From contig CAZZIZ010000003.1 of the NCBI GenBank assembly GCA_964654535.1, positions 1-55,909 of the forward strand: a stretch of 55,909 nucleotides of DNA, written 5' to 3'. The stretch comes from an uncultured Chitinophagales bacterium (lineage in GTDB: Bacteria; Bacteroidota; Bacteroidia; Chitinophagales; UBA2359). Below the pieces are notes generated by a model, which had not been told where the DNA came from, made no database searches, and saw only the letters and a list, made by a program, of their open reading frames with translations. Each line of letters starts with the position of its first letter. The stretch's first letter is position 1. This document shows, piece by piece, positions 1-23,861 of the stretch. A program made the position numbers and the translations under genes.

Positions 1-48
1 AACATTTTCTAGGCGCGCCGAATTTGAGCGGATAGCCTGTTGCTGCCC
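1..48 (-). repeat. Truncated copy (C) of the left module of a multi-copy intergenic element; other copies start at 13840 and 23104
   Basis: The reverse complement of 1-48 reads GGGCAGCAACAGGCTATCCGCTCAAATTCGGCGCGCCTAG. This matches the first ~40 nt of the elements at 13840 and 23104 (GGGCAGCAACAGGCTATCCGCTTGTACTCGGC...). The copy runs off the window edge. Confidence 0.7.
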
Positions 49-4149: not shown

Positions 4150-4258
4150 TAAAAGAAAGGCAGGAACCTGAATCGCACCGCTCAACCATCTACCCTTGCT
4201 TCCTTCCGGACCTGGGGGAGTTCAACAGGAGCTGGTCGTACAAGCCCTACCCGAGGCC
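4150..4258 (-). ncRNA. ffs: Signal recognition particle RNA (small 4.5S-type SRP RNA)
   Basis: The minus strand reads ...CUCCCCCAGGUCCGGAAGGAAGCAAGGGUAGAUGG... This is the conserved SRP domain IV with its GGAA tetraloop; compare E. coli 4.5S CAGGUCCGGAAGGAAGCAGCC. It sits in a 247-nt gap between CDSs and is followed by a U-rich tail (UUUCUUUU). Both ends are approximate. Confidence 0.75.
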
Positions 4259-4364
4259 GAAAATAATTCATTTAGCGTTAATAAGGCGTCGTTCGGAAGG
4301 CTAGTTAATTGTCGGCTGTTCCTTTTAATATCTTTATTTTACAGGACACGATTTTAATTGAACC

Positions 4365-12946: not shown

Positions 12947-13806
12947 TGGCAAACGTTGAAGTAAAAAAACGCGAACCGAAACCAAAATGGTTACGAGTAA
13001 AGCTGCCCATGGGCGAGAACTATCGCAAAGTCCGCGAGCTCGTCGATAAAAATAATTTGCATACGATTTGTCAAAGTGGCAACTGTCCAAACATGGGCGA
13101 GTGCTGGGGAGCAGGTACCGCCACTTTTATGATACTCGGAAATATTTGCACCCGCTCATGTTCATTTTGCGCTGTCCAAACGGGGCGTCCTACAGAACTC
13201 GATTTAGATGAACCAAACCGCGTTGCAGAAGCCGTAAAACTGATGGGCGTAAAACATTGCGTTATTACATCGGTAAACCGCGATGAACTCAAAGATGGCG
13301 GTGCAAGCGTCTGGGCAGCTACCATAAGAGCCATTAGAAGAGAAAGCCCGAACACAACGCTAGAAACTTTAATACCAGATTTCCGCGCCAAGTGGGACGC
13401 TTTAGAAATAGTCGCCAAAGAAAAACCAGAAGTAGTGTCGCACAATATGGAAACAGTGCCGCGCCTTTATAGACTCGTTCGACCTCAAGCGAAGTACCAA
13501 AGAAGCTTAGAGCAAATACAACGAACAAAAGATATGGGTTGCAGAACCAAGTCGGGCATTATGGTCGGCATTGGTGAAACCCAAGAAGAAGTTTTTCAGG
13601 TAATGGACGATTTGCTTGCCCACGGTTGCGATGTTATTACCATTGGTCAATATCTCCAACCGACGAAACATCATCTTGCAATTGCAGAATACGTCACTCC
13701 AGAAACGTTCGATCTGTATCAAAAAGTTGGTATGGAAAAAGGATTCAACTTTGTGGAAAGTGGTCCGCTAGTTCGTTCCAGTTACCACGCTGAACGACAC
13801 ATCTAG
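12946..13806 (+). CDS. lipA: Lipoyl synthase
   Basis: Radical-SAM CSFCAV (CxxxCxxC context TRSCSFC) plus the N-terminal cluster [23 protein letters not shown] lies near the start. The start ATG 12946 overlaps the upstream stop (ATAATG). Confidence 0.9.
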
Positions 13807-13839: not shown

Positions 13840-14355
13840 GGGCAGCAACAGGCTATCCGCTTGTACTCGGCGCGTCTATCTTTGGTTCAGCATAGTCGCG
13901 GGTGCGTATTCCCTAGACGGTCATCCACCCCCGCTCCTTGCTTCACACAAAGCTAGCCACACCTCATACCGCTACTATCCTGGCTGCGGGTTTCTATGCG
14001 CACCACCACTTTTTGTTTTCGCGAAAGTTTGAGCCCGCTTAGTTCACTTAACTACGTAGCAGTGGAAAAAATTGGTAAAACTTGTTCATCAAGCGACCAG
14101 ACAAGTACCTGTTGGGCAGCGCCCAACAAGATGGAGGAGATCAACGCGTAAGGGATAGAGGCCTTTGTTTAAGCTCCTGTTGCTGATGAACCTTTGCCCT
14201 TAGCTCCTTGGAGCTAGAGGGGCAATGCGTGAAAGCAGCAGAACAGAGCGAGGGCCGAAAGCCCGACCCCCGCAGCCATTCTGTTGCGACACAGAAAGGT
14301 AAAATTGCGCAGCGCATTACTGTCACAATGTGTAAAGCGGGGGTACGCCCATAAC
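13840..14355 (+). repeat. Copy A of a composite non-coding intergenic element: 155-nt left module, variable core, ~130-nt right module
   Basis: 13840-13994 is about 90% identical by eye to 23104-23258. 14146-14270 matches 23626-23750 (GCGT.AGGGATAGAGGCCTTTGT..GAGCTCCTGTT...CTTAGCTCC.T.GAGCTAGA.GGGC...GCAGAACAGAGCGA.GGCCGAAAGCCCGACCC). The open frames differ between the two copies, so it is not coding. Confidence 0.75.
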
Positions 14356-23065: not shown

Positions 23066-23280
23066 AGAAGCGTTTATTGGTATGTTGTTGTTAGATTTAA
23101 TCAGGGCAGCAACAGGCTATCCGCTTGTACTCGGCATGTCTGCGCTTTGTTCGGCATAGTCGCGGGTGCGTATTCCCTAAACGGTCATCCACCCCCGCTC
23201 CTTGCCTCACGTAAGCGCAGCCACACCTCATACCGCTACTATCCTGGCTGCGGGTTCTCCCTAAACCTATAGAAAAGAAA

Positions 23281-23533
23281 GTCATTTCGAAATTGTCGAG
23301 AAATCTCCCGGTCTCAAAGCGAGCGCAGCGATGAAACAGAAATGAAAATCAAAACGCTATGCTTTCCAGTGCTGGCGCGATCGTCTCGCTCGTGTCCGTA
23401 CTAAGCCGTCGCATTGTCAGCCTTTTCGGATAAGTCCTAACTGTAGAGCAATCATACTGTTTCGTATTACCGCTCATTACGCACTACGCGCAATTCGCTC
23501 ATAATCCTCTGATTTCTCGACAAGTTCGAAATG
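23281..23533. mobile_element. Nested MITE-like insert bounded by 25-nt imperfect terminal inverted repeats
   Basis: GTCATTTCGAAATTGTCGAGAAATC (23281-23305) faces GATTTCTCGACAAGTTCGAAATGGC (23511-23535). 23 of 25 positions are complementary. The ~205-nt interior has no consistent ORF. Confidence 0.55.
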
Positions 23534-23751
23534 GCTTTGGGGGTCCATGAAACCGTTTTTACATAACGTTTGAGGGCGAATACACAGATTTCTCGGCTGC
23601 GCTCCAAATGACAAGAGGATGAGATGCGTGAGGGATAGAGGCCTTTGTGGAGCTCCTGTTGGAAAAAGCAAGGAAAGACCTTAGCTCCCTAGAGCTAGAA
23701 GGGCTTTTTGCTTTTTGCAGAACAGAGCGACGGCCGAAAGCCCGACCCAAC

Positions 23752-23785
23752 AAAAAAGCCCCGCACGTTAGTGCGAGGCTTTTTT
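23752..23785. terminator. Bidirectional hairpin terminator, probably ending the minus-strand E2 transcript
   Basis: A6, then AGCCCCGCAC-GTTA-GTGCGAGGCT (10-bp stem, one mismatch), then T6. Confidence 0.6.
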
Positions 23786-23791
23786 GTTGGG

Positions 23792-23861
23792 GCACGCCCA
23801 AATCCTTAGGGCACGCCCAAATCCTTAGGGCACGCCCAAATCCTTAGGGCTCGCCCAAAAT
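23792..23861 (+). repeat. 19-bp direct tandem repeat, 3 full copies plus one degenerate
   Basis: GCACGCCCAAATCCTTAGG occurs at 23792-23810, 23811-23829 and 23830-23848, followed by GCTCGCCCAAAAT. Confidence 0.9.

Follow-up and report, generated by a model that had tools for sequence, protein, structure and literature searches.

A head-to-head doublet of structured intergenic repeats in an uncultured Chitinophagales bacterium and its sub-threshold resemblance to Flavo-1

Flavo-1 is among the most abundant "small RNA" annotations in Rfam. The motif (RF01705) was described by Weinberg et al. (2010; PMC2864571), and its function is not established. In F. psychrophilum, Flavo-1 matches were found in sense, in antisense or outside the transcribed regions (PMC9723704). 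Genuine Flavo-1 is itself dispersed through its host genomes: our scans of one genus (g47) scored at least 35 copies per genome. It reads UAGCC-CCGAUAGAAGUGG...CGGAUAGCGGG-AAAUAGCUCC. A second relevant system is found on Acinetobacter plasmids, where pdif (XerC/D) sites, which are 28-bp recombinase binding sites, bound the so-called dif modules. Successive pdif sites alternate, so that the module ends are inverted.

The window, i.e., the whole stretch of 55,909 nt analysed here, is contig C3 of the assembly GCA_964654535.1 (3.69 Mb, 366 contigs, 42.6% GC), and its lipA gene is 71-75% identical to those of Saprospiraceae MAGs. The original prediction described the region 13840-14355 as a composite non-coding repeat with copies starting just after stop codons. 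Its 21-mer GGGCAGCAACAGGCTATCCGC indeed has exactly three matches in the window, at 13840(+), 23104(+) and 48(-), with none expected by chance; they lie 33, 38 and 13 nt from the preceding stop codons (ORFs ending at 13806, 23065 and 62). Copies A and B have 153 nt in common on the left (89.5% identity) and 148 nt on the right (74% identity), while their cores are unrelated, as had been noted. The best explanation for this region is that it holds two different members, L and R-ext, of one structured intergenic repeat superfamily, a Saprospiraceae branch of Flavo-1-type elements. The members stand head to head, with their 5' ends facing and their GCCCAAA 3' ends outward. Each is self-contained and folds on one strand, L as a rod and R-ext as a three-way junction, and both carry a conserved non-Watson-Crick GGAUAG/GGAUAGC loop at the centre. 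We consider it probable that they are dispersed, formerly mobile DNA repeats that fold as single strands, similar to REP/BIME. Coordinates of the individual features are collected in Table 1. Elsewhere in the window, a Bacteroidales-type small SRP RNA gene is located at 4154-4259 (-) and matches Rfam RF04183 over its full length (75 bits).

Table 1. Repeat features of the window and RAYT-like genes of the assembly (window positions unless a contig is given; for L and R-ext the strand is the folding strand)
Feature	Position	Strand	Remarks
L, copy C	1..48	+	truncated at contig start; written strand minus; 13 nt off NUDIX stop
L, copy A	13840..13989	-	150-nt rod; 98% identity to family consensus
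Unique spacer of doublet A	13990..14145	.	BLAST depth 1-2 throughout
R-ext, copy A	14146..14354	+	three-way junction
R-ext copy A, P1	14146-14150 (GCGTA) x 14344-14348 (TACGC)	+	variant is itself a compensatory change
R-ext copy A, P2 rod	14152-14264	+	
R-ext copy A, J2/3 (GAC)	14265-14267	+	
R-ext copy A, P3 variable arm	14268-14343	+	
R-ext copy A, tail (CCCATAA)	from 14349	+	
L, copy B	23104..23253	-	89% identity to consensus; 38 nt past cyclophilin stop
Nested unrelated MITE with terminal inverted repeats, 255 bp	23281..23535	.	between L and R-ext of copy B
R-ext, copy B	23626..23802	+	154 bits to covariance model R1
R-ext copy B, P1	23626-23630 x 23793-23797	+	
Three perfect tandem 19-nt copies	23790..23861	+	R-ext 3' end plus 7 nt of flank (GGGCACGCCCAAATCCTTA)
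RAYT-like Y1 gene	C181:2-667		
RAYT-like Y1 gene	C64:9446-9997		
RAYT-like Y1 gene	C43:19172-19756		
RAYT-like Y1 gene	C189:3922-4395		
RAYT-like Y1 gene	C29:5472-6029		

Across the whole assembly the two modules behave as two dispersed families with about 330 copies, which occupy roughly 1.5% of the genome, have sharp ends and are intergenic, mostly beside stop codons. L is about 150 nt long and has 71 copies (about 70 by assembly-wide BLAST), with a sharp 5' boundary and a 3' boundary near position 150. R-ext has 261 non-nested units according to a core regular expression (about 250 by BLAST), is sharply bounded on both sides and is 140-230 nt long (median 172 nt). The right module of about 125 nt in the original prediction is real, but it is merely the long arm of this larger unit: after sorting by downstream flank, every R-ext copy runs via a hairpin of variable length into a conserved GGGGCACGCCCAAA. 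Since the majority of L and R copies are solitary, the two do not make up one composite element, although they do recur together in 13 pairs. The original prediction is supported in that this is a real non-coding repeat, lacks an ORF and prefers gene 3' ends.

R-ext consists, in order, of GCGUG (P1), A, the P2 rod, GAC, the variable hairpin P3, G, CACGC (P1') and CCAAA at the 3' end. The P2 rod reads GGGAUAGAGG ... GAGCUCCUGUUG ... apical hairpin ... CAGAACAGAGCGA ... CCGAAAGCCC. About 200 units have a 120-nt rod and 36 have a different one of 143 nt. P1 occurs in the variants GCGTA/TACGC (seven times), GAGTG/CACTC (four) and GCGTT/AACGC (three). Of the 41 pairs that RNAalifold finds in a 92-copy alignment, 25 have changed compensatorily on both sides. 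Paired cells amount to 97.0%, compared with 83% in shuffled alignments (none of 500 reach the observed value) and at most 48% with slid partners. Because G.U pairs are frequent, two of them invariant, while A.C is almost absent, it is one particular strand of R-ext that folds.

The strand of L that folds is the complement of the one in which the 21-mer was written. In 54 copies the reverse complement gives an alifold energy of -43.1 kcal/mol with 36 pairs and 136 G.U, whereas the written strand gives -27.2 kcal/mol with 25 pairs and 4 G.U. The closing helix, GCAGC-AA-CAGG / CCUG-GCUGC in the 71 copies, has the compensatory variants CACG/CGTG, GGCCAGC/GCUGG and CTGG/CCAG; in copy A it is GCAGC/GCUGC plus CAGG/CCUG. 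The inner stem covaries freely, e.g., TTCAAAAACCT/AGGTTTTTGAA, and there are two alternative inner domains. On its folding (F) strand L reads ...CAGGAUAGUAGCGG...CAAGCGGAUAGCCUGUUGCUGCCC-AAA, and therefore has the GGAUAG/GGAUAGC boxes and the GCCCAAA end in common with R-ext. The T-rich "upstream flank" of L is accordingly the A-rich tail of the F strand, and in copy A the 3' end (GCUGCCC-AAA, minus strand) lies 33 nt off the lipA stop codon. Compensatory variation is heavy in both modules. A long-range helix between the left and right modules is not needed, since each module closes on itself with such changes, and the left-right helix itself has no covariation.

Other small repeats are found within and around the two families. 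The spacer of doublet A holds a small hairpin CCTGTTGGGCAGCGCCCAACAAG at about 14108-14131. Several pieces of the copy B core belong to further small repeat families, as found by BLAST against the assembly. The ends of the MITE in copy B (of the CAGATTTCTCGGCTTCGCTCGAAATGAC type) have about 20-40 occurrences across the genome and often immediately precede R-ext or follow L. Other MITEs are nested in 14-18 R-ext rods as insertions of 80-160 nt. An element of about 165 nt (..AAATTCCATATTTCTGCGTTAAAAATGCTCGTCATAGC..) is nested inside L copies in both orientations (C7:4120, C111:2556, C2:50481, C2:63634); it is also present within a second small MITE, which itself occupies one fixed site of R-ext rods. 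P3 arms grow by nested small hairpins ending in AGAAG, e.g., GCCGCTTGCGGCAGAAGC within GCAATGTTGC...GCAAATTGC. Solitary end fragments of the GCCCAAA type trail several other copies (contigs C12, C24, C138 and C234).

Gene context was counted with crude gene calls made in this analysis, according to which the written 5' end of L follows the stop codon of a co-oriented gene in 44 of 70 copies (37 of those within 100 nt); at the opposite end, a convergent stop lies within 100 nt of just 4 copies. For R-ext, a convergent gene ends opposite the 3' end in 137 of 227 cases, 61 times with its stop codon within 30 nt, and a gene in the same direction ends ahead of the 5' end in 98 of 206, 36 times within 30 nt. 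The rule that copies start after a stop codon in the orientation of the upstream gene therefore holds genome-wide for L but not for R-ext, where convergent cases prevail (137 vs 98). In terms of the F strand both families favour placing the GCCCAAA end beside the stop codon of a convergent gene, with a variable, A-rich spacer of 1-40 nt in between; for R-ext this stop-codon rule holds weakly. Genuine Flavo-1 shows the same direction, not significant, at 45 loci (11 antisense vs 5 sense within 30 nt).

Copies differ from each other in a way that preserves the fold. Between nearest-neighbour copies, whose cores are 93% identical, double compensation accounts for 123 of 206 changed pairs (60%), and another 64 have lost the pairing in one copy. 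Of the 60 unpaired columns in the core, 24 show conservation of 97% or more, and 54% of the aligned P3 columns differ. Related genera do not share the positions of the elements. Compensatory change maintains the base pairs. Compensated changes together with conserved unpaired columns would be expected of a functional structured RNA no less than of folded DNA. Either the copies are under selection in place, or the arms of the folded strand repair each other. The genomes G201 and G212 are 99% identical, too close for showing selection.

The elements could be structured RNAs, either a multicopy family of small RNAs or modules acting in cis in read-through transcripts. In the latter case they would act at the 3' end of the adjacent gene, stabilising it, terminating transcription or regulating it in antisense. 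We regard the two versions, taken together, as unlikely. Rich covariation, strand-specific G.U pairing, invariant non-canonical loops and the maintenance of pairing even among nearest-neighbour copies all agree with an RNA, as does the listing of Flavo-1 as an sRNA in Rfam. The 3' end of the folding strand abuts a convergent stop in 61 R-ext and at least 21 L copies, so that transcription through the element would give an RNA antisense to the gene end. About 25 P3 arms of R-ext genome-wide are bidirectional terminator hairpins, one of them in copy B (AACAAAAAAGCCCCGCACGTTAGTGCGAGGCTTTTTTGTT). However, the Bacteroidota -7 promoter box is present upstream of just 3.8% of copies, compared with 13% of genes, and both orientations relative to genes occur. 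Copy number varies from 0 to more than 260 among genera, the rods tolerate the nested insertions of 80-160 nt, P3 is hypervariable, and published Flavobacterium transcriptomes have no consistent Flavo-1 transcription. L would be antisense to the sole obvious transcript, which makes the sense 3'-UTR RNA considered in the original prediction unlikely for this family, as its folding strand is antisense to the upstream gene.

The reading that we prefer, a folded and formerly mobile DNA repeat, also draws on the pairing of neighbouring copies. In F-strand terms, neighbours within 3 kb comprise 34 inverted and no direct pairs, 31 of the 34 being '-+' (5' ends facing); within 10 kb there are 82 inverted and 10 direct pairs (p = 3e-15), and neighbours 6-20 kb apart are mostly '+-'. 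In each of the 13 L-R pairs within 2 kb, R lies downstream of L and is written on the same strand, which makes the pair an inverted '-+' one in F-strand terms. What looked like a composite is one of many '-+' inverted doublets. Doublets enclose between 30 nt and several kb of DNA, and the insides of 1-4-kb pairs hold single peripheral genes (amylase, HipA, L,D-transpeptidases, T9SS cargo). In another genus a '-+' doublet encloses three small hairpins between trxA and rpsP. The alternation is not explained by gene direction. Replication-strand bias judged by GC skew is not significant and is confounded by gene strand. We know of no alternating orientation in REP-type transposition, and the alternation argues against a lagging-strand mechanism like that of IS200/IS605.

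These orientation rules raise the question whether the functional unit is the inverted pair, with the outward GCCCAAA ends bounding a mobile or invertible cassette. REPINs, mobile insertion cassettes and the alternating pdif sites of Xer modules would be the models, and the cargo would range from a few hairpins to single accessory genes. We find this doubtful on the whole. It would fit the ratios of inverted to direct neighbours (34:0 and 82:10), the switch from '-+' at short range to '+-' over longer gaps, the uniform orientation of the L-R pairs, the single peripheral genes inside the 1-4-kb pairs and the same doublet architecture in another genus. On the other hand, most copies are partnerless within 10 kb, although the division of the assembly into 366 contigs hides many partners. 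The two members of a pair often come from different families (L with R), and they resemble each other no more than random copies do; we found no duplicated or polymorphic cassette, and no recombinase is linked to the pairs. The preferential deletion of direct pairs could produce the same pattern. It is similarly doubtful that Flavo-1-type pairs in general are the ends of an undescribed cassette system, in which a conserved host- or element-encoded protein would recognise the folded units and the pairs would move or invert short stretches of DNA, single accessory genes among them.

Evidence on mobility itself comes from the ends, the flanks and the genes that might act on the elements. The closest pair of copies at different loci is 95% identical, the median is 76%, and no recent copies were found by pairwise comparison across loci. 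Upstream flanks are unique in 127 of 184 copies. The 5' flank is conserved (T-T-C/T, with G never at -1) and the 3' end is A-rich. A classical MITE is disfavoured, as we found no target-site duplication of 2-5 nt above the shuffled expectation, no long terminal inverted repeats (the ends pair over the 5 bp of P1 only) and no parent insertion sequence. The lipA locus has no element in 38 relatives. A search for empty or polymorphic sites via contigs with exact protein matches returned the same strain or nothing, and the plasmid collection gave no match. An upstream hairpin was considered as the insertion target and rejected, its fold energy being equal to that of random intergenic DNA.

The genome has five genes for RAYT-like Y1 (HUH) transposases, about 190 aa in length (Table 1). 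In the classical REP/RAYT layout, a short hairpin family of its own, with 2-19 copies, flanks each gene on either side. Linkage of L or R-ext to these genes was rejected, because the families flanking all five are other ones; R-ext is found near a RAYT-like gene only on contig C43, as one copy. In relatives, model R1 finds no element beside Y1 genes, and no close or linked RAYT was found in element-rich relatives. TnpB (PF07282) is absent from the genome. Contig C114 (locus L108, 1159-2445) carries a single bacterial reverse transcriptase of 428 aa with a YVDD motif, apparently defence- or retron-like and located away from all repeats. An open frame of more than 720 aa on contig C229 (locus L109) encodes a eukaryote-type Ty3/gypsy RT-RNaseH-integrase polyprotein, and the contig is probably a contaminant. 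A reverse transcriptase was therefore rejected as the mobiliser, one of the two being defence-like and the other eukaryotic.

It is highly improbable that the elements are non-autonomous derivatives of IS200/IS605-type or other transposons (PATE/MITE) or SINE-like retro-elements: the lack of target-site duplications, the conserved 5' flank, the A-rich 3' end, the single-strand-specific folding and the presence of Y1 transposase genes and one bacterial RT gene would suit such an origin, but TnpB was not found, the Y1 genes are flanked by other repeats, the orientation alternates rather than tracks the replication strand, the second RT belongs to a eukaryotic contaminant, and there are neither poly-A tails nor duplications.

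A dispersed DNA repeat is favoured by the sharp ends, the mostly unique upstream flanks, the lack of an element at the lipA locus of relatives, the wide swings in copy number, the tolerance of nested insertions, the rarity of the promoter box, the occurrence of both orientations relative to genes and the scatter of Flavo-1 matches relative to transcripts in F. psychrophilum. Against a simple selfish MITE speak the failure to find a target-site duplication, a parent element, a linked enzyme or recent copies. For the dispersed single-strand-folding DNA repeat we propose the following history. The elements would have spread as DNA, helped by a trans-acting protein that recognised the folded core, in the manner of REP, BIME and REPIN sequences. 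As neither target-site duplications nor recent copies are seen, we infer this mobility rather than observe it. The elements are presumably no longer copying actively, and the copies may stay intact where they are through selection or because one arm of the folded strand templates repair of the other. The neighbouring convergent gene may in some cases already use the P3 arm as its terminator.

To place the elements among relatives, the covariance model R1 was built from R-ext. Related elements turn up with it in 11 of the 33 Saprospiraceae genomes (8 of 20 genera) and in seven other families of the order, in numbers from a single copy up to 47 or more among the matching relatives; across genera the copy number ranges from 0-2 to hundreds (>260). 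L-like end segments match the same relatives as R-like ones. The smallest related forms are 79 nt long. The core GCGUGAGGGAUAG...GAUAGCCCGACCC...GGGGCACGCCCAA is constant, while rods and P3 differ. The original prediction could not match the repeat to any RNA family, and an Rfam scan of the window at gathering thresholds (42 bits for Flavo-1) likewise has no match for it; nor does Flavo-1 have a match in the whole genome at E<=0.01. Scans of copies A and B by E-value gave a lone 17.8-bit Flavo-1 match on the minus strand of the L of copy A. Below the threshold there is nevertheless a relative: Flavo-1 aligns to the P2 arm of two minimal members, at independent loci in other genera, with 27.5 and 27.2 bits (threshold 42). 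Flavo-1 appears to be the closest catalogued relative, one that lies below the Rfam threshold.

Overall, the Flavo-1 type comprises at least two architectures, rod and three-way junction, with one loop module and 3' end in common. The folding strand of the elements is often antisense to the neighbouring gene, they hug stop codons, and their orientation alternates so strictly that they look paired; the orientation rules are the most useful of these new constraints. Taken together, the constraints argue against annotating such matches as ordinary sRNA genes. The elements also explain the fragmentation of this MAG into 366 contigs and supply some genes with terminator-like hairpins. Should the doublets prove to be cassettes, the near-perfect alternation would be explained and the orphan Flavo-1 motif would gain a function after 15 years.

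Among the known systems, the pdif sites resemble our elements in the alternating orientation of successive sites, but ours are large folded chromosomal elements. The likeness to the REP, BIME and REPIN sequences of enterobacteria and pseudomonads is more extensive: hundreds of intergenic copies at gene 3' ends and stop codons, inverted doublets and mosaic clusters with other small repeats, several subfamilies, and strand-specific folding tolerating G.T pairs. Our elements differ in being branched and 80-230 nt long, whereas REPs are hairpins of 20-40 nt with a GTAG head; neither L nor R-ext brackets a RAYT gene, and the copies are old (median 76% identity) instead of forming a cloud around a master sequence. 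Compared with Flavo-1, R-ext has in addition the closing helix, the hypervariable P3 as third arm and the GCCCAAA end, the rods are 2-4 times longer, and the flanks read GCGUGA.../...CACGCCCAAA in place of UAGCC.../...AAAUAGCUCC. Like Flavo-1, L and R-ext are multicopy intergenic elements of Bacteroidota (71 and 261 copies). The internal-loop signature of the Flavo-1 hairpin base, 5'-GAUAG(A)AG / 3'-(C)GGAUAGC, is present in R-ext and in the reverse complement of L, as seen with cmscan and by inspection of genuine copies: the reverse complement of L reads CAGGAUAGUAGCGG...CAAGCGGAUAGCCUG, and genuine Flavo-1 reads CCCGAUAGAAGUGG...UAACGGAUAGCGGG.
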